Of a stretch of DNA of 64,000 bases, positions 34,602-49,223 are shown piece after piece. Source of the DNA: Candidatus Poriferisocius sp. (GTDB lineage Bacteria; Actinomycetota; Acidimicrobiia; Acidimicrobiales; Bin134); the NCBI RefSeq assembly GCF_965204015.1, contig NZ_OZ241965.1:2423991-2487990 (forward strand). Direction: 5' to 3'. The notes below the pieces were generated by a model, which did not search any database, had not been told where the DNA came from, and saw only the letters and a program-made list of their open reading frames with translations. The stretch's first letter is position 1; every line of letters begins with the position of its first letter. The position numbers and the translations under genes are program-made.

Positions 34602-35846
34602 TCAGGCGGCGGTCAGCTGTTCAACGGGCGGCGGGTGGGTTGTGGGGCGGGGCAGGCTGGGGCGGGGCGGGGGTTGGAGGCGGTATCGGCTGGCTTCGGT
34701 GTCGTGTTCGATGGTGTGGCCGTGTTTGTGGACTTTCTTGTGGCAGCGGGGGCACAGAAGCACCAGGTTGGTGATGTCGGTGGGCCCGTTTTGGTCCCAT
34801 GGGATTATGTGGTGGGCGTCGCACACCTGAGGTCTGAGGCCGCAGCCCACGCAGCGGCGGTCTCTTTTGTACAGGGCCAGCTTTTGGGCCTTGGTGACCG
34901 CCCTTTGGGCTCTGCCCACGTAGAGGGGCTGCCCTTCGGCGCCGAAGATCATCGGCACGATGTCGGCGTCGCAGGCTAGGCGGCGGAGCTCGTCTAGCTC
35001 GATAGGAGTGCCGTCGATGAGCCCAGCGTTCTTCAGCCGGCCCTCGATGGCGTCGTAGTCGGCGGAGATCACCAGCACAGTCTTCTGCGGGCGGGTCCCG
35101 CCGCCCGGCGCAACCACTGCGGGGTTGGCGTTGTCGGCGGGTTGTTGGGTGATGAGCGCTACCAGTGCGTCGGCGTTGCGCTGCTCGAAGGTGCGGATGG
35201 GGTCGTAGGCGATGTCGTCGACGAGCATTTTGTCGCTCATCGCGCCAAGAGCAATCTTGACCCGATCGCCGGATACTTGGTCGATCTCGGCGTGCAACAC
35301 GACCATGCCGTCGGTGCCGTCGAATACCTTGAAGGATCGGCGGGCCCGCTGGCGTTCGATTCGACCCATGCCGTCGTCGGCGCGGCGCTGGTCCTCGCGG
35401 ACGGCGACGGTCTTCTTGAACTCGTCGTGGTCCTGCAATCCGCCCAAGTCCAAGAGCTCTTGCTGGTCTTGTTCGCTCATCGGCGCCCGCTTGTGCGACT
35501 CGGCCACCATCCCACCCTGATCGGCGGAGATGCGCCCGTCGCGCACCGCGCCCAAAACCTCGGGCATGGCCGCGACGCCCTGGGCCGTCCTGGCCAACTG
35601 GCGGGCCCGATACGCGCTTATGCCGAACTGATGGCACACCGTCGCAGCCGCGCCCGGCCCCTCCAGCTCGCCATAGCGGGCGACCAGCCCGACCAGATAG
35701 CCCTCGGCCCGACGGCGCAACAGATCGGCCTGCCCCATCAAACCCAACAACTCCGAAGTGCCCGCCTCAGAGAAATCCGGGAACCCGAAGCCCGCACCGA
35801 CACCAGCGCCAGAGCCGTTTGTGCTGGGTTTCAACGTAAATTCCAT
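34602..35846 (-). CDS. DUF222/HNH endonuclease (REP13E12-type)
   Basis: The C-terminus has an HNH zinc motif, RRCVGCGLRPQVCDAHHIIPWDQNGPTDITNLVLLCPRCHKKVH. The N-terminal helical region resembles actinobacterial 13E12-repeat proteins. ATG at 35846 (MEFTLKPS...). Confidence 0.8.
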   Translation of the reverse strand: MEFTLKPSTNGSGAGVGAGFGFPDFSEAGTSELLGLMGQADLLRRRAEGYLVGLVARYGELEGPGAAATVCHQFGISAYRARQLARTAQGVAAMPEVLGAVRDGRISADQGGMVAESHKRAPMSEQDQQELLDLGGLQDHDEFKKTVAVREDQRRADDGMGRIERQRARRSFKVFDGTDGMVVLHAEIDQVSGDRVKIALGAMSDKMLVDDIAYDPIRTFEQRNADALVALITQQPADNANPAVVAPGGGTRPQKTVLVISADYDAIEGRLKNAGLIDGTPIELDELRRLACDADIVPMIFGAEGQPLYVGRAQRAVTKAQKLALYKRDRRCVGCGLRPQVCDAHHIIPWDQNGPTDITNLVLLCPRCHKKVHKHGHTIEHDTEASRYRLQPPPRPSLPRPTTHPPPVEQLTAA

Positions 35847-35989
35847 AAATGAGATTATACCAACCCCAGTGACACAATCCGCCTTGAAAATGATCAGAAA
35901 ATCCGAAAAGTAGGCACGCGCAGCCAATGGGGGTTGGCGGTGTCTCGTTGATGTCCGGGCGTTCTCGCGCTACCCTTCAGCCATCATTC

Positions 35990-36039
35990 CCCGCCCGGTG
36001 GACGGATCGCTTCGATCCATCCCCGGGCGGGTGTTTTTT
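35990..36039 (+). terminator. Orphan intrinsic-terminator-like hairpin (plus-strand orientation)
   Basis: CCCGCCCGG (35990-35998) pairs perfectly with CCGGGCGGG (36023-36031) around an inner GGATC/GATCC hairpin, followed by TGTTTTTTG. There is no plus-strand gene directly upstream. Confidence 0.35.
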
Positions 36040-36138
36040 GTGCGCACCATTGTGCTGATCGACAGCCAGAACCTCTTTCACCTTGCCAAGCGAGCATGGG
36101 CACCCGCTGATGTGAGTCCTTCGCCTTGGTCGCGGTGA
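36040..36138 (+). pseudogene. Truncated NYN/LabA-like gene fragment (32 codons)
   Basis: The GTG at 36040 gives VRTIVLIDSQNLFHLAKRAWAP|ADVSPSPWSR*. The first ~20 aa match the beta1 (h)IDxxNL signature of NYN domains. The frame stops 19 bp before the hsdR 3-prime end. Confidence 0.3.
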
Positions 36139-36157
36139 CTCGCTAGGTCACCTGTTC

Positions 36158-39100
36158 TTACTGGGCAGTGACTGTTTCGTAGATGCCTCTGGCTAATCCG
36201 GCGAACACTATTTCTCGGAAGTCGGGGTCATTGAGGCAGCGTTTGACGATTTCGTCGTTGTCGGCCATGCGCTCGATCATCAGTTTCGGCAGTTCTTGGC
36301 GCATGGCGAGTTCGAACTTCTCGAAGGGGTTGGCTTCGGCAGTCTGGCTGATGTTCTCGTTGTTGACCCCGTCTTCTTGTATCTGCTCGAAGAACAGCCG
36401 GTCTGAATCGTCAAAAGCCGTGCCGAATCGGTCGTTGAGGTTGGCGATGATCTCTGAAAGCGGGGCCTCGTCTTCCTCGGTGCGGCCGGTGCCCACCTCG
36501 ATAGGGCTCCTGACCGTTGTTCCCTCGTCGTCGAGGTCGATCGCCCCAGTGGAGACATGCTGTAGGCGGTAGTACTCCAACTCAACCTCGTCTTCAAGGC
36601 GCAGCTGCTCCATCATGTCGTCGCGGAGGCTGGGCAGCAGCCTTTTGGCGAATGCTGCGAGCTGTTCGAGGTCGCTGTCGGCATACGGGATGATCTGGCT
36701 GATGAAGGCGTAGAGCCGGACGAACGCTCCGAGCCGGTCGCGGAACCTAGCTTGCTCGTCCTCTTCGAGGTGCCTGAACCTGCCGACAGCGGGCTGAAGT
36801 TCCAATACCAACCGCGCGTGGTCGCCGTCTTGGCGTTTGTCGAAAGGCTGAAAGTACACCTGGGCGAACCGCTCCACTTCGTCGTGGTGGTACACCTGCA
36901 TCTCATCGAGTTCGTACTTGAGGCCGTCGAGCAGAATCGGGTCTGATTGGGTTTCTAGCTGGGTCTGGTCGTAGTAGGGGGCGAAAGCCGCGCCAATGTC
37001 TTCGGGATCGTTGACAAAATCCAACACGAACGGGTCGCTCTTGCCGGGAGCGACCCGGTTGAGACGCGACAAGGTTTGCACGGCCTGAACTCCATCGAGG
37101 CGCTTGTCGACGTACATCGCCTGCAACAACGGCTGGTCGAAGCCTGTTTGGTACTTCTCGGCCACGAGGAGAATCTGGTAGTCGGGCGAGTCGAAGCGGG
37201 CCGGCAGCGCTGACTCGCTGATCGGCTTGCCGCTCACGACGTCGGTGTTCATGCCAGACTCGGTGAAGTCCTCACCGGTGTCGGGATCGGTGACGGTGCC
37301 GCTGAACGCGACCAGCGGGCGAATGTCGGTGTATCCCTTCTGACCGATGCACTCCTCGAAAGCCCGCATGTAGCGCACGGCGTGGAGCCGCGACGACGTA
37401 ACCACCATCGCCTTGGCCTTGCCGTTCATGCGGTGCCTGACGTTGGCGCGGAAGTGCTCGATAATGACCTCGGTCTTCTGGGCAAGAGTTTCGGGGTGGG
37501 TTAGCGCATACCTATTGAGGATCCTGGCCGCGCGGCGCACCGGATATTCGGGATCATCGGGGGCACTACTAACGATCCTGTAGTAAGTGTCGTAGTCGGT
37601 GTAGTTCCGCAGCACGTCGAGGATGAAACCCTCCTCGATGGCCTGACGCATGCTGTAAACGTGGAACGCCTCGGGATTGCCGCTGGCTCCGTGCCGTCCA
37701 AAAAGCTCAATGGTCTTGCCCTTGGGGGTGGCGGTGAACGCGAAGAAGGACAAATTCGGCTGCGGGCCGCGGGACTCCACCACAGCATTTAGTCCATCCT
37801 CCCAGTCCTCAACGCTTTCCAAAGCTGCTCGTGAGCGCTTGCCCAGGACCGCCTTCATGTTGCGGGCACTCTCCCCGGTCTGACTGGAATGCGCCTCATC
37901 GACGATCACCGCATAACGCCGCCCTGCGATGTTTTGTCTCCACTCTTCTGCTTGGAACTGCTCATCTCGATTGAGTTCTTCGGGAGACCCAGCGCCGGCG
38001 ATGGACAGCAGGCCCTGCATGACGAACGGGAACTTCTGCAAGGTTGTAATCACGATCTTCGTCCCGTCCACAAGAGCCTGGGCCAGTTGCTTTGAGTCCT
38101 CGTCGATGGCCTGTACGACACCCTGGGCGTGCTCGATCTGGTAGATGGCGTCTTGAAGCTGCCGGTCGAGGATCCGCCGATCCGTGATGACCAAGACGCA
38201 GTCGAACACCTTGTCGTCGGTGTCGGTGTGCAGGCTCGCTAGCCGGTGCGACAGCCACGAGATGCTGTTTGTCTTTCCGCTACCCGCCGAATGTTGGATC
38301 AGGTAGTTGTTCCCAGCCCCTTCTAATCGAGCCGTCTCCACCAGACTGTCTACTGAGTCGAGTTGGTGGTAGCGGGGGAACACCAACGTCTCCCGCCTCA
38401 TGGTGCGTGCACCGCTCTCGCCGTAGATTTTCTCGTCGCGGTGCTCGATGAACACGTAGTGGCCCAAGATGTCTAGGAAACGGTTGCGTTCAAGAACCTC
38501 CTGCCAGAAGTAGCTACTGCGGTAGCCCGACGGATGCTCTGGGTTGCCTGCCCCGCACCTGATATCGCCGGGGGCGCTGCCCCGGTTGAATGGCAAGAAC
38601 CGAGTCTTGTTCTTTGCCAGCCGCGTGGCCATGTGAACTTCGTCGGTGTCGGCCGCGAAATGCACCAGGGCGCGCTTGGAGAACTTGAACACAGGAGCGT
38701 TGGGGTCGCGATCTTCCTTGTACTGACGAATGGCATTGCGCCACGTCTGACCCGTCATCGGGTTCTTCAGCTCGCAGGTCGCTACCGGCACGCCGTTGAG
38801 AGCGAACAACAAATCAATGGTGTCGCCCTTGCCGGGATGGCACCGAACCTGGCGCGTCACCGTGAGCTCGTTTAGGTCGAACTGTGCCATGGCATCAGGG
38901 TTGAGCTTGTTGGCCGGCTTGAAGAACGCCATCCGCAACGTCTTGCCCTGGAACTTGAAGCCCTGGCGCAACACCCCAAGAGTCCCCTTGATGTCAAGCT
39001 GCTTCGCCAACTGGTCCACAACCATCTCAGCCAGACTCTCACCGTGCTGCGCCGCCAACTGGCCCCACAACTCAGGCTGAGCGGCCCGCAGGAATCCGAC

Positions 39101-39226
39101 CACGCCGACAGGGAACACAGCCCGCTCCTCATCCCACTCGCCAACATCGCCCTTGTGCCAGCCACCCTTGACCAGCATCGACTCAATCGTCGATTCAAAG
39201 TCCCTCTCGTCCGTCTGGCTAGTCAC
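36158..39226 (-). CDS. hsdR: Type I restriction enzyme, R subunit
   Basis: 1022 aa. Nuclease motif DLLFALNGVPVATCELKNP, helicase motif I QHSAGSGKTNS, and DEAH box VIVDEAHSSQTG. The GTG start overlaps the hsdS stop (GTGA). Confidence 0.93.
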   Translation of the reverse strand: MTSQTDERDFESTIESMLVKGGWHKGDVGEWDEERAVFPVGVVGFLRAAQPELWGQLAAQHGESLAEMVVDQLAKQLDIKGTLGVLRQGFKFQGKTLRMAFFKPANKLNPDAMAQFDLNELTVTRQVRCHPGKGDTIDLLFALNGVPVATCELKNPMTGQTWRNAIRQYKEDRDPNAPVFKFSKRALVHFAADTDEVHMATRLAKNKTRFLPFNRGSAPGDIRCGAGNPEHPSGYRSSYFWQEVLERNRFLDILGHYVFIEHRDEKIYGESGARTMRRETLVFPRYHQLDSVDSLVETARLEGAGNNYLIQHSAGSGKTNSISWLSHRLASLHTDTDDKVFDCVLVITDRRILDRQLQDAIYQIEHAQGVVQAIDEDSKQLAQALVDGTKIVITTLQKFPFVMQGLLSIAGAGSPEELNRDEQFQAEEWRQNIAGRRYAVIVDEAHSSQTGESARNMKAVLGKRSRAALESVEDWEDGLNAVVESRGPQPNLSFFAFTATPKGKTIELFGRHGASGNPEAFHVYSMRQAIEEGFILDVLRNYTDYDTYYRIVSSAPDDPEYPVRRAARILNRYALTHPETLAQKTEVIIEHFRANVRHRMNGKAKAMVVTSSRLHAVRYMRAFEECIGQKGYTDIRPLVAFSGTVTDPDTGEDFTESGMNTDVVSGKPISESALPARFDSPDYQILLVAEKYQTGFDQPLLQAMYVDKRLDGVQAVQTLSRLNRVAPGKSDPFVLDFVNDPEDIGAAFAPYYDQTQLETQSDPILLDGLKYELDEMQVYHHDEVERFAQVYFQPFDKRQDGDHARLVLELQPAVGRFRHLEEDEQARFRDRLGAFVRLYAFISQIIPYADSDLEQLAAFAKRLLPSLRDDMMEQLRLEDEVELEYYRLQHVSTGAIDLDDEGTTVRSPIEVGTGRTEEDEAPLSEIIANLNDRFGTAFDDSDRLFFEQIQEDGVNNENISQTAEANPFEKFELAMRQELPKLMIERMADNDEIVKRCLNDPDFREIVFAGLARGIYETVTAQ

Positions 39227-40512
39227 GCTGCGCTGCCTTCTGTCTCGACTGCGGCGAAGTCTCTCACGTCGATCTTCCCAGTCACTGCAGCTGTGACGAG
39301 TGCGCTCCGATACTCCTGCAACCGCTCAATTGCTGTACAAACCATCTCGCTGAGTCGTTCAAGCCGCGCCTCAACAGCATCAACATGCGCGATGATCGCC
39401 TCCTGCTCCCGCAAGGGCGGCACCGCGGTGACGAGCGATAGAAAGTGCTGGGGATACAACCTTAGCCTCGAACTCCATATACCCCTCGATTCCGAAGTCA
39501 TCCCAAGCACATACCTAGATGATCGGTAGGCCAGGTCGACAAACCTCGGCAGCAGCCTCCGGTGGTCCGGTACGTACACATTGTATGAGGGGCTCACGAG
39601 GCCCGGTTCCTTCGCCGTGCCAGCAGCGCCCATCCACGCCCACATGGTGTTGATGACCAAGTCTCCGGCGTAGCAGCGCTTATAGTCCTCCAGGCTCTCA
39701 GCCATGAACATGCCAACATCCGGCTTCTCCGACCGTCTCGTGACACCCGTGATGTGAGAGACAGTCAAGAGTTCACCTTCTCCGTCGTCTGATCGCTCAT
39801 CGCGCTCACGGAATAAGCGGCGATTCTCGACGACATCCCAGTGCTGAGGCACGTCTCCCAACCATTCCACTCCTGAAGGTATGAGTGGCGGCGGCAGGTC
39901 GAACCCTTCCGCCTCGGCCACATCAGGCGGCAACCCCCTGGTCACCGTCCGGGTGATGAGCGCTGTCCGATACTCGGCGAGCCGCTCGATCAACTGCTGC
40001 TTCTTCGCTGCTAGAGCATCCACCTTCGCAGTCTCTTGGTCAAGATAGGCAGTTATCGCGACCTGGACATCGTTCTCAGGTATGCGGAGCGACATCTTCA
40101 ATAAATGTTCAGGTCGTATGCGCTGGTGGCTTCTCGTAGCCGATTGCACACAAGAATGGAGATGTTGTCGGACTTCCTCTGACAACAGCAAGTACACCAA
40201 GTAGTCAGCATCTACGGCGGTTGCATTCATTATGACGAACTCGCCACTCGCTATTGCAGGATAAGTCAAATGATGAGGAACTCGTAGAACACGAGCCTTA
40301 CGGGGGTTGAGCCTTGACACCATGACCTCGCCGCCTACAAGAAGTTGCTTGTTGCTCAGAATCTCATCTGGAGGAATCAGGTCTGGTCGGCCGGTTTCTT
40401 CCAGGGAGGGGATGCTGTAATGCTCGATAATGGGATGATCTAGTTCGCGTGGGTCGATAGCTTGCCGTACTGGTTGTACGACGTGCTCAACTCGGACTTC
40501 GCGCCAAGTCAT
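39223..40512 (-). CDS. hsdS: Type I restriction-modification specificity subunit (two TRDs)
   Basis: ATG 40512 overlaps the hsdM stop (ATGA). Two TRD-like halves are separated by coiled-coil conserved regions (...AKKQQLIERLAEYRTALITRTVTRG... and ...IERLQEYRSALVTAAVTGKIDV). Confidence 0.85.
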   Translation of the reverse strand: MTWREVRVEHVVQPVRQAIDPRELDHPIIEHYSIPSLEETGRPDLIPPDEILSNKQLLVGGEVMVSRLNPRKARVLRVPHHLTYPAIASGEFVIMNATAVDADYLVYLLLSEEVRQHLHSCVQSATRSHQRIRPEHLLKMSLRIPENDVQVAITAYLDQETAKVDALAAKKQQLIERLAEYRTALITRTVTRGLPPDVAEAEGFDLPPPLIPSGVEWLGDVPQHWDVVENRRLFRERDERSDDGEGELLTVSHITGVTRRSEKPDVGMFMAESLEDYKRCYAGDLVINTMWAWMGAAGTAKEPGLVSPSYNVYVPDHRRLLPRFVDLAYRSSRYVLGMTSESRGIWSSRLRLYPQHFLSLVTAVPPLREQEAIIAHVDAVEARLERLSEMVCTAIERLQEYRSALVTAAVTGKIDVRDFAAVETEGSAA

Positions 40513-42617
40513 GCGGTGACCTCTGCGAGCATTCCGACGATTTCGTGTTCGAGTGCTTGCAGGTCGGCTTCGATATCGTCGAGCGGGCGGGGTGGTTCGT
40601 AGACGTAGAAGTGCCTGTTGAGGGGGATTTCGTACCCGAACTTGGTTTTGGAGTGGTCCACCCATGCATCGGGAACGTGGGGCATCACTTCTCGGGCCAT
40701 GTAGTCGTCTACTTCCACTCCTAGCGGCACGGTCTCCGTGTCTCGCAGCTCGGTGTCCGGTTCGGGATTGCCCTTGCTGTCATTGCAGATCGCTGCGCCA
40801 GGGTCTCGTCTTCCGAGTGCTGATATGACGGCCTTGCGCTCCGGCGCTGACAGTCGGATACCGGCAGCGCTCGCTTCGTTTTGGAGGACTTCGAGGAACT
40901 CGTCTCGGTCGTCGATGACCTCGCCGTCCGTCTCCTCTGCGATTGCATCCAGCAACGCTCGGATCGACTCTTGGCGGCGTTTGCCTGCCTCTACTTCGTC
41001 GTCATGCTGCTGGCCTGGACGCTTCTTGCTAGTGGCCAGATTGGCGAACGCTTTTTCGTCTTCTAGTTGGGCAATGCGCTCCGGGGTGGCGGCGAAGTTC
41101 AGTCGCAGTGGCCGCTCTACAGTGATTTTCTGATAGCCGAAGTCGCTGTTGTCGAAAACCTTGCTCACGGCGAGAGAGCGGGTGCGCGGTTGATGCGTAA
41201 CGGGGTCTTCGTCGGTGAATTCGCGGGTCTCGCCATGGGTGAAGTTGCCGTGGATTCGGGTCAGGTCGTCAACCTGATATGGGGAGAGCTCTTTGCGCTT
41301 TTCGCCAAGGTTTCTACGCATCTTCACGAAGAACTGGCGACCGTCGATGAGTTGCACCCTGCCCTTGCGGTGCTGTTCCTTGCGGTTAGTCAGAATCCAG
41401 ATGTAGGTGGAGATGCCGGTGTTGTAGAACATCTGGTCGGGCAGGGCCAGGATCGCTTCCAGCCAGTCGTTCTCGATGATCCAGCGTCGGATATCGCTCT
41501 CTCCGCTTCCAGCGTCTCCAGTGAACAGCGGCGACCCGTTGAACACGATGGCGATGCGGCTGCCGCCCGCACCGTCCTCGTCGACAGGCTGCATCTTGGA
41601 CAACATGTGCTGAAGGAACAGCAGCGACCCGTCGTTGATCCTCGGCGTGCCAGCGCCGAAGCGCCCGTCGTATCCGAGTGTGTCGTGCTCACGTTCGATG
41701 ACTTGGCGCTGCGGTTTCCACTCCACTCCAAAGGGCGGGTTGGCGAGCATGTAGTCGAATTTCCAGGGCTTCCCGTCGGGATGCCGCTGGAAACCGTCGC
41801 TGGTGAACGTGTTCCCACGAATGATGTTGTCCGCGTCCTGCCCTTTGAGCAGCATGTCGGACTTGCACACGGCCCAGGCTTCGTCGTTGTGGTCCTGTCC
41901 GTACAGGATCGGGCGCGACTCCCGGTTGTGCTCCAGCAGATACTCCTCGGCTACCGACAGCATCCCGCCGGTGCCGCAGGCGGGGTCGTAGATCGTCTTG
42001 ACGACATGGCTCTTACCCAGGTCGCGCTCGGGCGACAGCAAAAGGCTGACCATCAGCCGGATGACCTCTCGTGGTGTGAAGTGCTCCCCGGCCTCCTCGT
42101 TGGACTGCTCAGCCCCGATCCGAATGAGTTCCTCGAACACGTAGCCCATCTGCATGTTGTCGACGCGCTCTACCGACAGGTCCACCCCGGCAAATGCCTT
42201 GACCACTTCGTACAGCAGGTTCTTCTCGTCCATGCGGGCGATGTGGTCGACGAACCCGAATCGTTCGATTACCTCCCGAACGTTCTCCGAGAAGCCGCCA
42301 ATGTAGGCGTTGAGGTTCTGAGCCAGCAGATTCGGGTCGTCCAGCAGCCGGTCAAAATCGAGTTTGGACGTGTTATAGAACGGAAGCCCCGAGGCCGCCT
42401 CCAAGAGCTGCTCGCGGACAGTATCCGGCTGGCCGGCGTGCTGCTGGTGGGCGGCGAGCACAGCCTGCTTGGTGTCCGCGAGAACGCAGTCAAACCGCCG
42501 CAGCACTGTCAACGGCAAGATCACCTTCCGATACTCGTTGCGCTTGTAGGGCCCTCGTAGCAAGTTGCATATCTTCCAAATGAAGTTCGCTAGCTGCTGG
42601 TGCGTACTGGCATTCAC
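40509..42617 (-). CDS. hsdM: Type I restriction-modification N6-adenine DNA methyltransferase subunit (long form)
   Basis: 702 aa. HsdM N-domain (QQLANFIWKICNLLRGPYK), FTPREVIRLMV, motif I DPACGTGGML, motif IV LANPPFGVEW. GTG start at 42617 preceded by GGGAGG. Confidence 0.93.
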   Translation of the reverse strand: MNASTHQQLANFIWKICNLLRGPYKRNEYRKVILPLTVLRRFDCVLADTKQAVLAAHQQHAGQPDTVREQLLEAASGLPFYNTSKLDFDRLLDDPNLLAQNLNAYIGGFSENVREVIERFGFVDHIARMDEKNLLYEVVKAFAGVDLSVERVDNMQMGYVFEELIRIGAEQSNEEAGEHFTPREVIRLMVSLLLSPERDLGKSHVVKTIYDPACGTGGMLSVAEEYLLEHNRESRPILYGQDHNDEAWAVCKSDMLLKGQDADNIIRGNTFTSDGFQRHPDGKPWKFDYMLANPPFGVEWKPQRQVIEREHDTLGYDGRFGAGTPRINDGSLLFLQHMLSKMQPVDEDGAGGSRIAIVFNGSPLFTGDAGSGESDIRRWIIENDWLEAILALPDQMFYNTGISTYIWILTNRKEQHRKGRVQLIDGRQFFVKMRRNLGEKRKELSPYQVDDLTRIHGNFTHGETREFTDEDPVTHQPRTRSLAVSKVFDNSDFGYQKITVERPLRLNFAATPERIAQLEDEKAFANLATSKKRPGQQHDDEVEAGKRRQESIRALLDAIAEETDGEVIDDRDEFLEVLQNEASAAGIRLSAPERKAVISALGRRDPGAAICNDSKGNPEPDTELRDTETVPLGVEVDDYMAREVMPHVPDAWVDHSKTKFGYEIPLNRHFYVYEPPRPLDDIEADLQALEHEIVGMLAEVTA

Positions 42618-42678
42618 AGGGTTCTACCTCCCAACCCAAGGGGGGATGCTATGGCCAAGGACAACGCTGCACACCTCG

Positions 42679-44838
42679 TCATTCAGTGCCACTTTCTTGA
42701 GGGATCAGAAGGTCGACCTCAAGTCTCCGAAGTGCCGTCAGGTCCGACTGCAACTCGCCAACCCATTTCAGAGCCTCGTCGAACCGGCCCAACAGCTGTT
42801 CAGCCTCGTCTAGCTGTTCAGCCGAGGGAATAGGAATTGCGAGGTCGGCCAACGCTCTAGAACTGAGAAATGGCGTAGTCGCGCCGGTTGAAGCTCGGGA
42901 AACTCGATCTCTGAACTGCTGGGACTGTGTCCAGAGATAGACCCACGGAGCAGTGACCTCCTCGTGATTCGGGCGTATCAGTGCACACCCTTGGTCGAGG
43001 ACCGCTCCCTGGTGATGCCTAGTGGCCAGGATCGAACCTCCGACATCGCCCCTGAGGGCTACGACTACGTCACCCTCTCGAATTTCTACAGGCGGCCTAG
43101 TCGAGCTCTCCTTGTCGACATACCTGGCCGTGCCTGTGCCGCCAGAAGAAACTTCTCGGAGGCCGATCAATAGGGTTCCGTGTTCTGGGTCTTCCAACTC
43201 AGGTGCGTTTGTTCCCATGTATATGTCCGCAACCTCCTCCAGAGCACGGGTAATCGCCGAATCCCTGCTTCCTGACTTTTCGTTCGAGAATGGGAGTCGC
43301 TCAATTGCTGACGTTGCGATTTCGGTGGTTTCCGGCAGCTTCTCTCTCAACTCCCTGGATCGACGCTGGGCATCCTCGGTGTCGAACTCGGGAATGGGCC
43401 GGTACTGCTTTGGTTCGAGGATCGCATCGTTATTGATTATTTCGGCGATGCTCACTACTTGAGCAATCTCGTCGTTTTCAGTTGTGCCTGCTTCAAGTGC
43501 TTGAAGTGTTCGTGCGATTCGATGAATGTCTTCCGAGTCGAAGTTGTGCCGGGAACGACTGGCTGTGCCAAGAGTCGAGGCGTCAACGAGCAGCACGCTG
43601 TCAGCACCGGGTCGCGGGGGTTGGAGAACCCATAGGAATATGGGGACTGATGTCTCAGAGCGCATTCGACTTGGTAGTTGGATGACAGCCTTGATGGCTC
43701 CCTCTTCAAGCATCGCCTTGCGAATTCCTGCCTCAGGTCCGCTGCGATGGCTTGCTGTTCCAGTAGAGGTGCCCACTACCGCGACTCCACTCTCTGAAAG
43801 ACATTGAATGGCAAGCTGCAGCCAGGCAAGGTCTGCGTTGGATCTCGGGGGGGCTCCGAACCTCCACCGCTTGTCCATGTAGATGTCCGCATCTCCCCAG
43901 CTGGAGAGGCCAAGGGGTGGATCGAGGAGAACGATGTCGGCTAGGGGTAGCTCCTCTTGGGGTACCCGGAAACTGTCGCTCAAGCGAAGGTCGGCGGTTA
44001 CGCCTTGAATGAGGAAGCGAGACTTAGCGACCCTTAGAGCACCTTCATCGACATCGAAGCCAACCAGATTGATTGGCTTCGAGTTTCTTGGCTGAAGGCT
44101 GAGCGCCGCAGAAGAGAGCAGACCGCCTTCCCCACAGGCCAGATCGCACACCGTATTGGCATTCTGGCCAGCCAACTGAATCATGAGCATTGCAATGTCG
44201 GCTGGGGTTGAGTGCTCACCCCGAAAGCGGTCACGCTTACCAATTCGGCTGACGACATCATCAAATTGGGAAAACCTGGGAGTGCCTTCCCTGTTTGTTG
44301 CGTCAAAATTCTCGATCAGCGACACCAGGAGTGTGCCAGGTAATTTTGGAGCTGCAGAGAGGCCGTCTGCGAGCAGCCCCTTGAGCGCTCGGTTCTCCTC
44401 CTCGATACTCCTCGCGGCTTCGCACAACTTCTCACCGACTTCATCTGCTGGAAACTGACGCAATCGCGTCCAGCGGTCGTTCTCGCTGACGGTCACCTCA
44501 ACAGAGGATTGATGGCTCGAGCGATACGATGTATCGCTTGCTTCCAGGTAGACAAGCACTGACACAAGGAGCTCGGTTATCTCGTCTGTGTGCAGGCCGG
44601 ACATTTGCAAGCTGTCGATTAACGACCGCCGAGCGAATGTGGCAGGCACACGAGAATCGATCTTCCCGTTCTCAATCAGCCATCGCTCGACCTCGCTGAG
44701 GTCAAATCTGCCGCTGGAGTCTGCGACTGGAAAATCCGAGTGTCTCTTGCGCCAGTTGCCCACGGCAGAAGGCCTAAAACCAGTGATTTCTGCAATGTCC
44801 CTGATGTTGACGGTGGTGCGTGAAGGGAGGTCACTCAT
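42679..44838 (-). CDS. HTH - N6-adenine DNA methyltransferase - single-TRD fusion protein (M-S fusion)
   Basis: 719 aa. N-terminal HTH-like segment TVNIRDIAEITGFRPSAVGNWRKRHSDFP. HSTPADIAMLM, motif I DLACGEGGLL, motif IV LLDPPLGLSSW. C-terminal HsdS-like TRD (...IREGDVVVALRGDVGGSILAT...GCALIRPN...) plus a helical spacer. Confidence 0.85.
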   Translation of the reverse strand: MSDLPSRTTVNIRDIAEITGFRPSAVGNWRKRHSDFPVADSSGRFDLSEVERWLIENGKIDSRVPATFARRSLIDSLQMSGLHTDEITELLVSVLVYLEASDTSYRSSHQSSVEVTVSENDRWTRLRQFPADEVGEKLCEAARSIEEENRALKGLLADGLSAAPKLPGTLLVSLIENFDATNREGTPRFSQFDDVVSRIGKRDRFRGEHSTPADIAMLMIQLAGQNANTVCDLACGEGGLLSSAALSLQPRNSKPINLVGFDVDEGALRVAKSRFLIQGVTADLRLSDSFRVPQEELPLADIVLLDPPLGLSSWGDADIYMDKRWRFGAPPRSNADLAWLQLAIQCLSESGVAVVGTSTGTASHRSGPEAGIRKAMLEEGAIKAVIQLPSRMRSETSVPIFLWVLQPPRPGADSVLLVDASTLGTASRSRHNFDSEDIHRIARTLQALEAGTTENDEIAQVVSIAEIINNDAILEPKQYRPIPEFDTEDAQRRSRELREKLPETTEIATSAIERLPFSNEKSGSRDSAITRALEEVADIYMGTNAPELEDPEHGTLLIGLREVSSGGTGTARYVDKESSTRPPVEIREGDVVVALRGDVGGSILATRHHQGAVLDQGCALIRPNHEEVTAPWVYLWTQSQQFRDRVSRASTGATTPFLSSRALADLAIPIPSAEQLDEAEQLLGRFDEALKWVGELQSDLTALRRLEVDLLIPQESGTE

Positions 44839-45305
44839 GCGGGGGTCCCGAGCATGTCAAGTTCGATTGGGGGATATGGGAAAAGTATGTGGTGACTGGC
44901 AGCCATGCGCAGAGATCTGGACAGGCTCTCGGGTCGCGACACCACGGTGACGTCCACTTCTTGTTCTCCAAGCCTTGCTATCGCGTCGGCGAAGATTCCA
45001 TCTCCTGATGCAAGAATCACCGAATTGAAGCATTCGGCCACTCGTTCCTTTTCGATGACTGCAAGGAGAGCGAGGTCTGCGCCGTTCTTTCCTGAACGCC
45101 ACAAATGGCGCCCTCCCTGCCACCCAAACCGAACGTTGGGTGCTGCTCTGTGGCTGCAAGCTACGACGACTTGGTCAACAGGACCAATATGTAACGCTTC
45201 GTATGCAAGCTGGTACCACCGGACACCTTCACGGGAAGGGCTCGGTGAGCCAGTCAGGTTTTCTATGTCTATGAGATGAAGCGATCGCTCGCCTGTGCTG
45301 TTCAT
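44835..45305 (-). CDS. NYN/LabA-like (PIN-fold) nuclease-domain protein
   Basis: SLHLIDIENL..., ...GKNGADLALL..., ...VILASGDGIFADAI...EVDVTVV follow NYN motif order. The stop overlaps the MTase ATG (ATGA, 44835-44838). I chose the ATG at 45305 as the start, and the track TTG at 45341 is an alternative. Confidence 0.65.
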   Translation of the reverse strand: MNSTGERSLHLIDIENLTGSPSPSREGVRWYQLAYEALHIGPVDQVVVACSHRAAPNVRFGWQGGRHLWRSGKNGADLALLAVIEKERVAECFNSVILASGDGIFADAIARLGEQEVDVTVVSRPESLSRSLRMAASHHILFPYPPIELDMLGTPA

Positions 45306-45386
45306 GGGAGGATGTTTATCACGCGGAGTATGTGTTGTCAAGTCACAAGACTAGATAATAAAATCACACGGGGAATCTTGTTCAGT

Positions 45387-45477
45387 ATCACAGGGGGAAT
45401 TCCACCGAGAATCCGCGCGCGGAAATCTGCACCGAATCACGCGGGGGAGTTCCACCGAGAATCCGCGCGCGGAAATC
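45387..45477. repeat. Two ~41/42-bp direct repeats (49-bp period), each with palindrome TCCGCGCGCGGA, in the divergent intergenic region
   Basis: R1 is 45387-45427 and R2 is 45436-45477. The last 28 nt (TTCCACCGAGAATCCGCGCGCGGAAATC) are identical. The heads are ATCACAGGGGGA and ATCACGCGGGGGA. Shorter head-only copies start at 45363 and 45318. Confidence 0.85.
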
Positions 45478-45614
45478 CGATCGCTATCTATTGCCGCACC
45501 GAGAGATCGAATACTGATCGTGTGGGCCTGATTTCTGCGGGGAATGGTGCATCAGCAATTTCCGCCTGGTCAGCACCCATGGAGGGCCGAACTGTCACAC
45601 CTGCTGCTTAGGCT

Positions 45615-47264
45615 GTGCTGGTGACCACTATCGAATCGTTGCCCTCGGACGAACTCCACCAGGAGCGAATACTGCAGGACTTTTTTGCTGACGACGAGGG
45701 TTCTTGGACCACCGTCTACCGCGGCGGTGACCTGGCCCTGTTTGCCGGATTCGCGCCACTGCCCTCCGTGCCCGATCTATTGAAGAAATGCGACTGGGAT
45801 ATCCATTTGGCGCGAGGCGGCCCGTCGCTCTGGCGGGATGCGGATGATGAGGTCTACTACGACTGCTCTTTCGGAGACCACGGCGTCAAGCCAATAGCCA
45901 TCATCCAAGACCACCTGGGAGTCCTGCCTGAAATGCTCCCTCAGCTGCTCCAAGAGTTCTGCCTGTATCACAACCTGTGGCACACCGACGGGAGGGTCTA
46001 CAAGAAGCTGCACCGTGACGGGAGCGAGGAAGTCGCATGTGAAGTGAGCGTGGATCTAGTTCGGATACGCACAAAGCTATTGAGGCAGTTTCAAGCGGCG
46101 GTCCAGCTCGTGCTCGTCAGGTACATAGATTCGACTGTTACCACTTCCCAATATTGCGATGACCCCGTGCTGGACCATGAGATCAAGGGCGAAGACCACT
46201 ATCTGCGTCTCTCTATACGCAAGAACAGACGGACTAGTGGCAAGTTCTCCTGGCTGATGGGTAAGAAGCTGATATTGCCTCCGCCGCGGTCCGAGTGTGG
46301 ACAGTGGCCGTTCGACAAGCAGGATGATGAGGATTTTCAGGAGTTCGTCATTGGCGAGACTCCAGAGGGCCATCTCATCAAGAGCACCTGCGACCCTGAT
46401 GCCCTGGACAATTACTTTGACCTCAATCCCGGTGCACCCCAATATCTGACGCCCGTGTACTTCAAGCCAGAGGTTCTTGACCGTTACTACTCCGACCCCA
46501 AGTACGAAGTGCGCGACGGCCTTCTTGCCTGCGGAGGCCTGTGGGGTGTGAGTGTGGACAACAACCATCCCGAACATGTGACGGTGTGGCTGGGCGACCT
46601 CGGGCGCGATCTGCCTGAAAAGGAACGCCACCACTGGCTCACCCACAACATCTTCGTGCCCGATGGGACCCCCAGCGAGACTGCAATCAGACGGCAACTC
46701 CTGGGGCAATGGGCCGAAGCGGACTCCCCGGCCTGGCGGCTACAGGCGGCATACACGAGATTCCGGGACGACTGGGCCATGGATTGGGGCTGGGACTTGT
46801 TCAGGGACCCAGACGACGATGACCCCCAGCTCCTCGCGTGTCTCCGTGTCCCATCCCGAGGAGGGGACACAGAATTTGGCGAACAAATCAAGGCACTTCA
46901 CCGGCTGTTGGTAGAGAGCATCAACACCCCGCAACTGAAATCGGAATTGCCGAAGGGCGAGAAGGACGAAAAATCCATTGCCCTGCTCGAACGGTGGCTC
47001 GCCCACAAGGGCCACCAGCAACTAAAGGAAGTCATCGGCTTGCTGAGAAAGATCAACGACCTCCGCAACGTCAGCGAGCACCGATCTGGGCGCAAGCGCA
47101 CACAGGTCTTTCAGAAGCACCAAATCGCCGACGACAGGCGTGAGGCGATATCCGCCCTCTTCGAAGAGGCAATCTCACTTTTGGATTCCCTCAGGGAGAC
47201 TCAGGCTAGGGCGACCACTGGCCGACAGGTCGCAGGTGCGAGTGACTATCCATTGCCTCCGTAA
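45615..47264 (+). CDS. Hypothetical 549-aa protein with C-terminal HEPN-like RNxxxH motif
   Basis: Long ORF (GTG start) with no housekeeping similarity that I recognise. The helical C-terminus ...LKEVIGLLRKINDLRNVSEHRSG... carries R484-N-x3-H489. It is the first gene of a 4-gene operon. Confidence 0.7.
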   Translation: MLVTTIESLPSDELHQERILQDFFADDEGSWTTVYRGGDLALFAGFAPLPSVPDLLKKCDWDIHLARGGPSLWRDADDEVYYDCSFGDHGVKPIAIIQDHLGVLPEMLPQLLQEFCLYHNLWHTDGRVYKKLHRDGSEEVACEVSVDLVRIRTKLLRQFQAAVQLVLVRYIDSTVTTSQYCDDPVLDHEIKGEDHYLRLSIRKNRRTSGKFSWLMGKKLILPPPRSECGQWPFDKQDDEDFQEFVIGETPEGHLIKSTCDPDALDNYFDLNPGAPQYLTPVYFKPEVLDRYYSDPKYEVRDGLLACGGLWGVSVDNNHPEHVTVWLGDLGRDLPEKERHHWLTHNIFVPDGTPSETAIRRQLLGQWAEADSPAWRLQAAYTRFRDDWAMDWGWDLFRDPDDDDPQLLACLRVPSRGGDTEFGEQIKALHRLLVESINTPQLKSELPKGEKDEKSIALLERWLAHKGHQQLKEVIGLLRKINDLRNVSEHRSGRKRTQVFQKHQIADDRREAISALFEEAISLLDSLRETQARATTGRQVAGASDYPLPP

Positions 47265-47270
47265 CGAATT

Positions 47271-47301
47271 TTGACAGAGAGTGGTAGCATTTACTAGTAA
47301 A
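47271..47301 (+). promoter_or_regulatory. Putative internal promoter with overlapping 12-bp palindrome
   Basis: TTGACA (47271-47276), an 18-nt spacer, then TAGTAA (47295-47300). The perfect palindrome TTTACTAGTAAA (47290-47301) overlaps the -10 element. It sits in the 117-bp gap before the next ORF. Confidence 0.3.
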
Positions 47302-47381
47302 TCCACCGTCCATGAATGACTCTGTGCGAGCATGTCAGCGCATGTGCGCAGTTCGTGCAGCGAAAGGACTCTGCGTTGGCG

Positions 47382-48146
47382 ATGTCTGAGTTGCCGGATT
47401 TTAAGCAACCGCCAGTCATCGAGGTAGCACTCTCAGTTCAGTTCGAAGAATCGCTGGACATCCAGACTGTCGGTGAGGACGCTCTAGCAGCAGCATGGCC
47501 CGGATACGACCTCGAAATGCGTCCAGTCCTGACGACGATGGGCCTGGAACCGGGCGCGTTCGATCGGACAGACGATGAAGCGGGCAACCTTAGGTTGTGG
47601 CTTTCCAATCCCGGCGGCAGTCGCGTGGTTCAGGTACAGCATGATCGGCTCGCGGTTCATTGGACTCAAGACGAATCGGAGGAGGCATATCCTCGGTTTG
47701 CTTCGTTGCGGGAGTTCTTCGTAGAGGCATGGCACAGACTCGACGTTGCTGTCGGCGATCAGTTGGTGCCGGACGTTTGCCAAGTTCTCTATGTGAACCA
47801 CATCGGCGCGGAGAGCGGCTGGCAAAGCGCTGAGGACACGCCCGAGATACTGGCTCCTTGGGGTGGCATCATGAGCGACGACTTTCTTCCCGAACCCGGG
47901 ATCGCTGCCACTTACCTGCACTTCCACATACCTGATCCAGGGGAGTGGCTCGACATCCAAGCAGGCCCCGTCGGAGTCAATGACGAAAGCGTCCTCGCGG
48001 TTTATCTCGCAGCTAGGGGACTTGCGTCATCACCTGATTTGGAAGGCGCTCTCGAATTCATGGACCTCGCCCATGAGTGGATCGTTCGAGGATTTGCTTC
48101 ATTCACCACACCATCAGCACACAAGACTTGGGGGCGAAGACGATGA
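47382..48146 (+). CDS. TIGR04255-like protein of unknown function
   Basis: The ATG at 47382 gives MSELPDFKQPPVIEVALSVQFEE.... From memory, this N-terminal P-P-[LIV]-x-E-[VA]...F motif and the ~255-aa length match the uncharacterised TIGR04255 family. This needs HMM confirmation. Confidence 0.65.
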   Translation: MSELPDFKQPPVIEVALSVQFEESLDIQTVGEDALAAAWPGYDLEMRPVLTTMGLEPGAFDRTDDEAGNLRLWLSNPGGSRVVQVQHDRLAVHWTQDESEEAYPRFASLREFFVEAWHRLDVAVGDQLVPDVCQVLYVNHIGAESGWQSAEDTPEILAPWGGIMSDDFLPEPGIAATYLHFHIPDPGEWLDIQAGPVGVNDESVLAVYLAARGLASSPDLEGALEFMDLAHEWIVRGFASFTTPSAHKTWGRRR

Positions 48147-48715
48147 ATAGCCAAGCAGCAGGTCTCCTAGTCGAAACGCACCCCGTTGACGACTGTGAAA
48201 GCGGGTACTTTCCGTGGGGCCTCGAGACCATTACTGACCCCTTCAGAATTGTGGTCCCTGCGGCATTCAATTTGTGGTTTCCCTTTGCCGTGCGCAGGAG
48301 AAGCCGTAGAGACGCTCTGGTGAGGATTCCGATCCTTTTGGAGCCCATCAGCACTTTGCATGAGGAAATCGAAAAGCTCAAGGAACTTGACGACGGCTGG
48401 TACGACACTGACGGCGAGGCGGGGACGGCACCGCATGAGAAAGCGATCCAAGGAGTTTGGAAGCTCGCGTCAGCTGTCCGATTCTACGGGCTGCCTCAGC
48501 CGCACGTGTTCCCGTGCGTAGATGGCGGAGTCTCTATGGAGTGGTCGCTAGGCGAGGTCGAAGCGTCCATTGAATTCGGCGACTCGTCCGAATACGCAAC
48601 ATTTGCCTCCTGGGATGCGACAACGGACGAACACCGGTATGAGGAAAACGTCCGAGTTGACAGAAAGTACATGAGGGATTGGTTGGGTGGTCTCACAGGC
48701 ACACCAGTGAAGTGA
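48143..48715 (+). CDS. Hypothetical protein (190 aa)
   Basis: The ATG overlaps the upstream stop (ATGA 48143-48146). MNSQAAGLLVETHPVDD......LDDGWYDTDGEAGTAPHEKAIQGVWKLASAV...PCVDGGVSMEWSLGEVEASIEF. I recognise no family. Confidence 0.6.
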   Translation: MNSQAAGLLVETHPVDDCESGYFPWGLETITDPFRIVVPAAFNLWFPFAVRRRSRRDALVRIPILLEPISTLHEEIEKLKELDDGWYDTDGEAGTAPHEKAIQGVWKLASAVRFYGLPQPHVFPCVDGGVSMEWSLGEVEASIEFGDSSEYATFASWDATTDEHRYEENVRVDRKYMRDWLGGLTGTPVK

Positions 48716-49110
48716 GCTGGCCCGAACTGGCGGATGGGGAAGTCCAGATCACGGATCTCGCCGAACAACTGAGGCGTCAGATAAATCCTAGATTCTTGGG
48801 CGAAGATGGGAGGACGATCACGTCCGAGGTCTTCAAGCCTCGAAGCAAGATGGTGTCCACGACTAAGGATTCCATTATTTCTAGGGAGGAGGCTCATTCC
48901 CGCTATCCGAATGAGACCGTTGGTAGCTGTTTCGTCACTGTGTCCGAAATCGAAAGTCTCGGGCTTCGCGCCATAGACGACTCTTGTGCCGATGACGTGC
49001 CGTACGGCCATGCCTATATCGACCTGCGAATCTTCGGCAGAAGTGCAATCGACAAGAAGGCCAAGCAACTCAAGAAGATTGCGATGGAAAACGGGATATG
49101 GCGTCCCTAG
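48712..49110 (+). CDS. Hypothetical protein (132 aa)
   Basis: The GTG overlaps the upstream stop (GTGA 48712-48715). ...LRRQINPRFLGEDGRTITSEVFKPRSK...VGSCFVTVSEIESLGLRAIDD...YGHAYIDL...KKAKQLKKIAMENGIW. I can name no family. The gene ends 30 bp from the tRNA-Tyr 3-prime end. Confidence 0.55.
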   Translation: MSWPELADGEVQITDLAEQLRRQINPRFLGEDGRTITSEVFKPRSKMVSTTKDSIISREEAHSRYPNETVGSCFVTVSEIESLGLRAIDDSCADDVPYGHAYIDLRIFGRSAIDKKAKQLKKIAMENGIWRP

Positions 49111-49140
49111 CGAGGCCCTCTGAATGAAGCTGTTGACTTG

Positions 49141-49223
49141 TGGGCCGGGGAGGATTTGAACCTCCGAAGGCTAATGCCGACGGGTTTACAGCCCGTTCCC
49201 TTTGGCCGCTCGGGCACCGACCC
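49141..49223 (-). tRNA. tRNA-Tyr (GTA), long variable arm
   Basis: 83 nt: GGGTCGG TG CCC GAGCGGCCAAA GGG A ACGGG CTGTAAA CCCGT CGGCATTAGCCTTC GGAGG TTCAAAT CCTCC CCGGCCC A. Confidence 0.92.

Follow-up and report, generated by a model that had tools for sequence, protein, structure and literature searches.

Why should a complete Type I restriction-modification (R-M) operon be preceded by a second methylase gene and a nuclease gene? The question is raised by a 64,000-nucleotide stretch of the genome of Candidatus Poriferisocius sp. (contig NZ_OZ241965.1; here called the window), where a gene for a NYN/LabA-like protein is followed on the minus strand by a gene for a 719-amino-acid (aa) protein that joins a helix-turn-helix (HTH) domain, an N6-adenine methyltransferase (MTase) and a single target-recognition domain (TRD), and then by hsdM, hsdS and hsdR. 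The 719-aa protein is denoted M'S' (M', methylase part; S', TRD part). Most likely, the NYN-M'S' pair does not form a second restriction system but guards or controls the existing one. That it is a conserved, probably autoregulated accessory cassette heading Type I operons is well supported, and so is the conclusion, drawn from sequence comparison, that its methylase-like part does not behave as a specificity-diversifying, catalytically constrained enzyme.

Domain calls in the window come from Pfam, NCBIfam and PADLOC scans (Table 1). An earlier note on this DNA, made from the letters alone, had described an ATGA overlap between the NYN gene and the 719-aa open reading frame (ORF), as well as the codirectional stacking of the pair ahead of a full Type I system across a 61-nucleotide (nt) gap with no visible terminator; both descriptions were confirmed, the stop and start codons sharing ATGA at 44838-44835 (minus strand). 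In the list of ORFs, the NYN ORF spans 44835-45341. The ORF is present, but its TTG start at 45341 was dropped for the ATG at 45305 because the TTG begins the -35 hexamer TTGACA and because nearly all homologs have ~156 aa, the length obtained from the ATG, versus 168 aa from the TTG. Further down the operon, hsdM and hsdS are coupled through an ATGA overlap, and hsdS and hsdR through a GTGA overlap. Neither a terminator-like nor a promoter-like site was found on the minus strand of the 61-nt gap between M'S' and hsdM, and transcription probably reads through from one into the other. This junction is, loosely, 88% conserved relative to that of locus L012; in most relatives, the gap measures 6 to 118 nt.

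By sequence comparison, the arrangement is far beyond chance. NYN genes followed by HTH-M'(S') genes with overlaps of 1 to 4 nt recur in ~60 loci, plasmids included; the adjacency, whose absence from other genomes the earlier note had named as evidence against its reading, is thus strongly borne out. A scan of the genome collection with a NYN alignment yielded 80 loci. M' directly follows NYN in 28 distinct loci, with overlaps of 3 or 4 nt, and the other ~50 hold a NYN paralog (≤50% identity) with no methylase and no Type I genes. In the reciprocal scan of metagenomes with an M' alignment, every close M' relative has NYN upstream. The arrangement is found in different classes of Actinomycetota, in a small number of Chloroflexota and Gemmatimonadota, and on six or more plasmids.

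The link to Type I systems is equally recurrent. Among the HTH-M' loci with at least 7 kb of downstream sequence, 29 of 44 have hsdM or hsdR downstream on the same strand. The Type I genes behind the cassette belong to different families, with HsdR of the EcoEI_R_C, EcoR124_C and T1R_D3 types, and in L010 and L028, their order is R-S-M. Unrelated Acidimicrobiia carry the series NYN, HTH-M', a 195-aa half-HsdS or a fused TRD, hsdM, hsdS and hsdR, in which overlaps link NYN, M' and S'. In L063 and L076, NYN heads an operon with HTH-HsdM as the only methylase, a full HsdS and HsdR. Plasmids of Corynebacterium glutamicum (p48A of strain USDA-ARS-USMARC-56828, NZ_CP014329.1), Mycolicibacterium alvei (pJCM12272 of strain JCM 12272), Dietzia kunjamensis (strain BIM B-2035) and Gordonia carry a NYN-M'-hsdM-hsdS array, which is followed by hsdR in the first three; the Gordonia gene table lists none. 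The NYN-M' pair stands alone on plasmids of C. comes (pCETAM) and Rhodococcus, and also in L002, L036, L069 and L074. The Prokaryotic Genome Annotation Pipeline labels the plasmid genes just "NYN domain-containing protein" and "N-6 DNA methylase." Next to the cassette in L001 and L006 are genes for a relaxase and a coupling protein (T4CP). As a separate observation, HTH-M' in L020, L115 and L122 is followed by two canonical hsdM genes, hsdS and hsdR; these arrays resemble the noncanonical M1M2S Type I systems of the PacII type (PMC9613975), to which the cassette also attaches.

The three-part architecture that the earlier note had read into the 719-aa protein (HTH, N6-MTase and single TRD) stands up in Pfam, in PADLOC and in an AlphaFold2 (AF2) model, and motifs I and IV are present as it described them. 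N6_Mtase (PF02384) matches aa 206-480 (9e-46); Specificity_I of PADLOC matches aa 531-686 (6e-16) and, together with mad5, aa 531-698. HTH_17 matches weakly (E = 0.029, aa 11-56). HsdM_N (PF12161) scores 19.6 to 22.6 bits, under the cutoff of 24.5, and the AF2 model is helical at aa 66-223. From the N to the C terminus, the model (predicted local distance difference test score [pLDDT] of 86) consists of a winged HTH, a helical domain, a Rossmann core, a long helix, the TRD and a long C-terminal helix. In the Protein Data Bank (PDB), the best match is 7EEW_A, the structure of a single-chain Vibrio vulnificus "intact MTase" with Ocr; PacII M1M2S and several HsdM structures come next. No nuclease domain was found in the M'S' chain by the domain scans or in the AF2 model: the N terminus is the winged HTH, and BpuSI is just a distant PDB match. 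In the relatives, the TRD is either fused to M' or encoded separately as a half-HsdS of ~195 aa (a Methylase_S protein). A profile of the HTH (aa 1-75) matches only the MTase that directly follows NYN or the first MTase of an operon, and never a canonical hsdM. Judged by these comparisons, M'S' derives from the M·S proteins of Type I systems and belongs to the "intact MTase" type with a single TRD; it has an N-terminal winged HTH and presumably dimerizes into an M2S1-like body.

One indication of whether M'S' is an active methylase comes from its motif IV. In 88 homologs, motif I is conserved and motif IV has the form D-P-P-x, where x is L in 64, Y in 17, F in 4, M in 2 and I in 1. By profile alignment across all loci, the canonical hsdM genes encode NPPF (29) or NPPY (9), and the HTH-HsdM proteins that are the sole methylase have NPPF in all seven cases. 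The "extra" HTH-M' proteins, by comparison, display DPPL, DAPL, DTPL, EAPL, EPPA, EPPF, HPPF, VPPY, SSPL, QPPT, CPPF, NPQF and EPRF, the first position in the wider M' relatives being E, H, V, S, Q or C. On plasmids, the motif reads EPPF (four), NPPW or DPPL, and the glycine loops are degenerate. In motif IV, the flipped adenine is held by the N or D and by the aromatic residue; METTL14, an inactive partner, has EPPL. The pattern in the extra M' proteins points to catalysis that has been relaxed or lost.

The TRD behaves differently from that of a specificity subunit. Compared with L012, L088, L089 and L008, the window proteins share 81 to 88% identity in HsdM (67% over the frameshifted gene in L089), 87 to 93% in HsdR, 30 to 56% in HsdS, 60 to 69% in the M' core and 58 to 62% in the M' TRD. 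HsdS thus swaps its TRDs as usual, given its low identity next to that of HsdM. These identities indicate that the M' TRD is inherited vertically family-wide, codiverging with the M' core, and is not swapped. No similarity was detectable between the M' TRD and the TRDs of the window's own HsdS; M'S' therefore does not copy the specificity of the neighboring system. On this evidence, M'S' is unlikely to be a second active methylase. The earlier note's claim that the array encodes two distinct N6-adenine MTases was accordingly not upheld: motif IV of the extra M' is degenerate family-wide and its TRD does not swap, while the adjacent HsdM and HsdS look active.

The protein encoded ahead of M'S' is a predicted RNase. 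It matches NYN (PF01936) at 32.4 bits, above the Pfam gathering cutoff of 24.2. The best Foldseek matches of its AF2 model (pLDDT 89) are 2QIP (1.4e-6) and the MARF1 NYN structures 5YAA and 6FDL (4e-5 to 3e-4), with TM scores of ~0.6; a sequence-only search of the PDB with the NYN profile gave just a marginal match to 2QIP, and a fold search was required. The NYN folds are predicted to be of the RNase type, with MARF1 and LabA as the closest structures. The subfamily comprises ~1,600 clusters (50% identity, E ≤ 1e-10). In the alignment of its members, D13, E15, N16, D77 and D102 are invariant. The window copy reads SGDGIF where GDxDF is canonical, and the earlier note had suspected a catalytically altered copy. 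This suspicion was not borne out: I, L, M or A replaces the second Asp throughout the subfamily, the motif reading GDG(I/L/M)F, and the three core Asp are invariant. As to the metal-binding acidic residues in general, D13, D77 and D102 are kept and the second Asp of GDxDF is missing subfamily-wide, leaving three of the four canonical acidic positions.

NYN is not the only occupant of its slot. In L122, a 377-aa Swt1-like HEPN protein (8454-9587) takes its place, with a 4-nt overlap with the start of HTH-M'. Because two unrelated RNase folds, NYN and HEPN, occupy it, the slot upstream of M' appears to be an effector position. By codon-position GC content, the ORFs upstream of NYN-less HTH-M' genes are mostly antisense shadows; just the HEPN gene of L122 and an ArdA-like gene of L151 look real. 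The latter (1738-2124; Pfam 9e-5, below cutoff) is an antirestriction-like ORF directly upstream of an HTH-only fragment akin to the M' N terminus. An apparent NYN-M' fusion protein (P0207), reminiscent of a Rosetta stone, was rejected as an artifact; its contig comes from a frameshift-ridden long-read assembly in which hsdM and hsdR are in pieces.

A putative operator, an imperfect inverted repeat lying over the -35 box, precedes the NYN gene in the window (Table 1), and the same TGTGAcTTGACaTCACA layout is found in L006, L008, L010, L014, L017 and L028. The ATG at 45305 lies 7 nt past TAAACA, and relatives are spaced alike (for example, TATAAT, 6 nt and ATG in L008); the NYN mRNA is probably leaderless, as read from this spacing. 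In M'-linked loci, the recurring layout before NYN is TGTGA-cTTGACa-TCACA, with the -10 box 17 nt on and ATG ~7 nt later. The upstream 200 nt contain on average 2.6 TGTGA/TCACA pentamers in the 28 M'-linked loci, compared with 0.24 in 51 NYN-only loci and 0.16 in the background, and inverted repeats or half-sites abutting TTGAC occur in 11 or 12 of the 28 versus none of the 51. TGTGA also adjoins the promoters of NYN-less HTH-M' genes. The operator therefore tracks the HTH-methylase and not NYN, being enriched in M'-linked and NYN-less HTH-M' loci and not in NYN-only loci. This distribution suggests that HTH-M' represses its own synthesis at the -35 box, as in M.SsoII and M.Ecl18kI. A single-TRD dimer would also be expected to read a symmetric bipartite site; the HTH is the more parsimonious reader of the putative operator, since in L063 and L076 the operator occurs alongside an ordinary HsdS with two TRDs.

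Table 1. Features of the NYN-M'S' locus in the window.
Feature	Position	Strand	Basis or remark
NYN/LabA-like PIN-fold protein, 156 aa, predicted RNase effector	44835..45305	-	Pfam NYN, AF2, Foldseek
M'S', 719 aa: winged HTH, HsdM-like helical domain, N6-MTase core, single TRD flanked by long helices	42679..44838	-	
Winged HTH of M'S', aa 9-56	44671..44814	-	HTH_17 E = 0.029; AF2 secondary structure
Motif I DLACGEGG (S-adenosylmethionine-binding loop), intact	44122..44145	-	Full motif DLACGEGGLL, aa 232-241
Motif IV DPPL, without aromatic residue	43912..43923	-	aa 306-309
Single HsdS-type TRD, aa 530-670, then C-terminal long helix, aa 673-715	42829..43251	-	PADLOC, AF2
Junction of M'S' and hsdM, 61 nt, Shine-Dalgarno-like GGGAGG	42618..42678	-	Without promoter- or terminator-like site
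hsdM, 702 aa, GTG start, canonical	40509..42617	-	HsdM_N 2e-26, N6_Mtase 2e-57, PADLOC MTase_I 1e-279
hsdS, two TRDs	39223..40512	-	PADLOC Specificity_I 1e-68
hsdR, 1022 aa	36158..39226	-	HSDR_N, SWI2_SNF2, ResIII, T1R_D3-like; TIGR00348 2e-51
Putative operator TGTGA-CTTGACA-ACACA, imperfect TGTGA-N7-TCACA inverted repeat over -35 box	45331..45347	-	
Further TGTGA copies	45364-45368, 45388-45392		
-35 hexamer TTGACA	45336..45341	-	Its TTG is the listed ORF start
-10-like hexamer TAAACA, 17 nt past -35 box	45313..45318	-	Read from sequence

Other repeated elements were observed in the same upstream regions. In L104 to L110, which are NYN-less HTH-HsdM, HsdS and HsdR operons, there is no TGTGA, and a conserved "CGTTTGTTAACAT" just before the start is possibly a changed operator. 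In the window, upstream of the operator in the divergent intergenic region, two 35-nt direct repeats (45393-45427 and 45443-45477) are 97% identical and 50 nt apart, and each contains the perfect palindrome TCCGCGCGCGGA. The TTCCGCG/CGCGGAA unit recurs upstream of NYN in L012 (five copies), L088, L089 and L014, and not in L008 or L002; it could be the site of a second regulator or a target of the TRD dimer (TCC-N6-GGA).

Taken together with known systems, these features are compatible with a guard or decoy function. The reading that we tentatively prefer, with somewhat less than half of our confidence, is that NYN-M'S' is an accessory cassette of actinobacterial Type I R-M operons, a guard or decoy with an RNase effector, and not a second R-M system. 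HTH-M' would repress its own promoter, which probably also feeds hsdMSR across the short, terminator-less gap. In its likeness to the real methylase, the M'S' body would serve as a decoy or sensor and would hold the cotranslated NYN RNase in check. The predicted trigger is a phage or plasmid antirestriction factor, either a DNA mimic such as Ocr or ArdA or depletion of S-adenosylmethionine, that engages M'S'. NYN might then be released or the operon derepressed, giving a backup, abortive-type response. This logic would be that of Ronin (RonA plus an HsdMS decoy) and of PrrC/EcoprrI, built from different parts. In favor of the guard model, the M·S fold can bind DNA mimics, and the best M'S' match in the PDB is such a fusion in complex with Ocr (7EEW). 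Of the options that the earlier note had offered for the pair, a regulatory methylase with a DNA-binding head and an abortive module fit best, given that the operator tracks the HTH and that HEPN replaces NYN in L122; a noncanonical restriction module fits least.

Several points weigh against the guard reading. NYN toxicity and the binding of NYN to M'S' are predictions, and the only NYN-type defense candidate that has been tested, HEC-09, gave no protection (bioRxiv 10.1101/2024.01.29.577857). Distant HTH-M' relatives (~27% identity) are often NYN-less yet still head Type I operons, which argues that the core function of HTH-M' needs no effector; some of them are the only HsdM of an hsdM-S-R operon. 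Close NYN paralogs stand alone in ordinary chromosomal contexts in ~50 loci, so an antidote is not an obligatory partner of NYN. Type I genes are missing next to one third of the cassettes. Finally, some extra HTH-M' relatives carry DPPY/F/W, the window clade keeps motif I and the D-P-P of motif IV, and M'S' may carry out residual or even real methylation.

A broader version of the guard reading is that a "decoy methylase" immune sensor is widespread in actinobacteria: a decayed M·S protein would detect antirestriction factors, the HTH would leave the operator, and the RNase (NYN or HEPN) would be unleashed, with departure of the HTH from TGTGA also boosting the adjacent Type I system. We regard this version as unlikely. 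If true, it would constitute a second, mechanistically distinct form of bacterial decoy immunity, with swappable effectors and built-in transcriptional feedback.

The main rival to the guard model is a pure controller of expression or establishment, which is possible although, on balance, somewhat improbable. Here HTH-M'S' would be an autoregulator of the whole operon, similar to a C protein or SsoII. It might also compete for HsdR as a dead, M2S-like body and so postpone restriction once a plasmid or an integrative and conjugative element (ICE) has entered a new host. NYN, in this view, would play an accessory part, trimming or destabilizing the polycistronic mRNA without sensing phage factors. 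The placement of the operator over the -35 box, specifically in HTH-M' loci, speaks for a controller. So do the presence of the HTH on a canonical NPPF HsdM that is the only methylase of a complete Type I operon (L063, L076 and L104 to L110), the NYN-less HTH-M' genes that still head such operons, the frequent mobile contexts (the relaxase/T4CP loci L001 and L006 and the plasmids) and the short, terminator-less junctions to hsdM. However, a controller leaves unexplained why the full MTase and TRD body, with its codiverging TRD and conserved fold, stays under selection if the HTH suffices, why two unrelated RNase folds take the translationally coupled first position, and why the cassette is retained in the one third of cases that lack Type I genes.

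A self-contained, noncanonical R-M or toxin-antidote pair, in which M'S' is an N6-adenine methylase active on a symmetric site, NYN is the nuclease against which it protects, and both are merely parked beside a Type I system in a defense island, appears distinctly improbable. The intact motif I and D-P-P of the window clade, the relatives with DPPY/F/W and the defense-rich surroundings could accommodate it, as could the pairs that stand alone (L002, L036, L069, L074, C. comes pCETAM and the Rhodococcus plasmid) and the PIN-HsdM-HsdS operons without an R subunit noted in a survey of PIN domains (PMC5499597). Yet motif IV is not conserved in the family, with E, H, V, C and Q among the residues at the catalytic first position, and the TRD never diversifies, unlike the real specificity subunits of the same loci. 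The NYN folds are those of RNases, closest to MARF1 and LabA, and NYN stands beside complete, HsdR-containing systems in which HTH-HsdM is the sole methylase (L063 and L076); moreover, the linkage to several Type I families is too regular for chance. A second R-M system with a NYN nuclease is thus the reading least consistent with the motif IV, TRD, and L063 and L076 data. For NYN as a restriction nuclease in place of HsdR, as the earlier note had it, L063 and L076 are again telling, holding NYN, HTH-HsdM, HsdS and HsdR side by side, and the RNase-type fold also speaks against it; this proposal was not sustained. That NYN, an orphan methylase and a Type I system are chance neighbors in a variable, low-GC island by tRNA-Tyr, where L002 has different cargo at the same spot, has next to no chance of being right and is refuted by the comparative data, in which order, strand, start/stop overlaps and a shared operator recur in the phyla and on the plasmids named above.

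The closest known parallel to the guard model is Ronin, in which HsdMS without HsdR cages a toxin, the response to Ocr, ArdA or Aop1 is independent of methylation, and the locus is associated with complete R-M or BREX systems (Silas et al., bioRxiv 10.1101/2023.04.06.535777). In both systems, a small effector gene immediately precedes Type I M and S genes with no HsdR of their own, and a complete R-M or BREX system lies alongside. An upstream noncoding region is important in each, and the guard logic, here a proposed one, is directed at antirestriction proteins; methylation is dispensable, as shown for Ronin and as motif decay suggests for NYN-M'S'. They differ in the effector, which is the 61-aa transmembrane peptide RonA in Ronin and here a 156-aa NYN RNase-like protein (HEPN in L122), and in the methylase, M' having an N-terminal HTH and a single, often fused TRD, whereas Ronin HsdM keeps NPPF. 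The host of Ronin is E. coli, whereas those of NYN-M'S' are actinobacteria, and the trigger here is predicted.

PrrC of EcoprrI is an anticodon nuclease kept latent by a Type IC R-M system (PMC12707154). As with PrrC, an RNase is tied genetically to a Type I system and is proposed to be a backup upon inhibition of restriction; in L063 and L076, where no methylase other than HTH-HsdM is encoded, the sensor could likewise be the real enzyme. Unlike PrrC, which is encoded between hsdS and hsdR, the NYN cassette stands at the head of the operon, and in most cassette loci, M'S' is a separate and degenerate copy. Pfam, NCBIfam and PADLOC scans of the window revealed no ATPase or anticodon-nuclease domain like those of PrrC.

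For the regulatory side, the precedent is the autoregulation of HTH-bearing MTases such as M.SsoII and M.Ecl18kI (PMC3978073, PMC2760811). With these enzymes and with C proteins, M'S' shares an N-terminal HTH on a methyltransferase and an inverted-repeat operator, here putative, in its own promoter. SsoII and Ecl18kI are active C5 methylases of Type II systems, whereas M'S' is a gamma-class N6 protein with an HsdS-type TRD and is often degenerate; the operons here are of Type I, with the operator over the -35 box of a predicted leaderless promoter. In overall build, M'S' and its relatives resemble 7EEW (V. vulnificus YJ016) and the engineered half-HsdS system EcoR124I-NT (PMC2877798), with M, one TRD and the conserved helices in one chain, or else M with a half-S of ~195 aa; a dimer and a symmetric bipartite site are expected. 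Unlike the window M'S', 7EEW has no HTH; the former has DPPL and is an extra copy beside a complete hsdMSR. It also differs from Type IIG and IIB enzymes in having no PD-(D/E)xK nuclease domain in the same chain as the MTase and TRD.

Links between NYN proteins and methylases have been described in few places. HEC-09 (bioRxiv 10.1101/2024.01.29.577857) is a MARF1-like NYN protein with three conserved Asp, embedded in Hma, a methylase-containing defense locus; it belongs to another NYN subfamily, has an extra N-terminal domain, is not coupled to an HTH-MTase, and showed no defense in tests. In the 2017 PIN survey, the proximity of PIN-like genes to those for Type I subunits was mentioned in a general way and without experimental work (PMC5499597). 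Beyond these two sources, nothing specific was found in the literature linking NYN with HsdM or N-6 methylases, and PADLOC, NCBIfam and Pfam hold no named system for NYN-M'S'.

If the guard model is right, guard or decoy additions to restriction systems would not be confined to the E. coli examples of Ronin and PrrC but would form a modular layer that is common in Actinomycetota and is carried on plasmids and ICEs. Many genes annotated as "N-6 DNA methylase" beside Type I systems are probably not methylases, and such mislabeling affects the assignment of methylomes to genes (annotation of the REBASE type) and the prediction of transformation barriers in Corynebacterium, Mycobacteriales and Rhodococcus. 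To our knowledge, Type I R-M systems are usually thought to be without transcriptional control; the TGTGA operator with an HTH-methylase is a candidate for such control. The mechanism is a proposal, and the interest of the cassette lies in its wide distribution, its clear signature and its testability: the plasmid arrays are in cultivable, genetically tractable hosts, which makes the hypotheses directly testable.

In the window, the operon lies in a low-GC island of ~13 kb (~36000-49200), where GC content falls from ~0.64 to 0.55-0.60, bounded by a DUF222-HNH gene (34602-35927) and tRNA-Tyr (49140-49223). No att-type repeat of the tRNA-Tyr of 14 nt or more was found at the other island end. 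In the related genome of L002, the same chromosomal spot, between acs/M48/YajQ and sucCD, holds other cargo: a Type II N6_N4 MTase with ICEA, Fic/RelB, and NYN-M'S' without a Type I system.

Several neighboring genes may be mentioned. OLD/ABC-type ATPase genes (AAA_15/AAA_21, one with TOPRIM), typical neighbors in defense islands, follow several cassettes, in L074 (13036-14886), L124 (7909-10776) and L006 (18501-20243). Divergent from NYN in the window, a gene at 45615-47264 (plus strand) encodes a 549-aa protein with no family match; a homologous fragment stands in the same divergent position in L088 (E = 1e-71), and the gene may be a conserved neighbor in this clade. The island also contains a gene for a TIGR04255 family protein (47316-48146, plus strand; 4e-12), a family of sporadic distribution, and an overlapping gene pair (48077-49110, plus strand) that matches the PADLOC candidate defense families PDC-M32A (C-terminal part, 1e-14) and PDC-M32B (6e-19) and ends 30 nt before tRNA-Tyr. 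Outside the island, a gene at 52302-54386 (minus strand) encodes a secreted-looking protein of 694 aa with many "ACGIRTDxTIxCWG" repeats, RCC1-like by eye.

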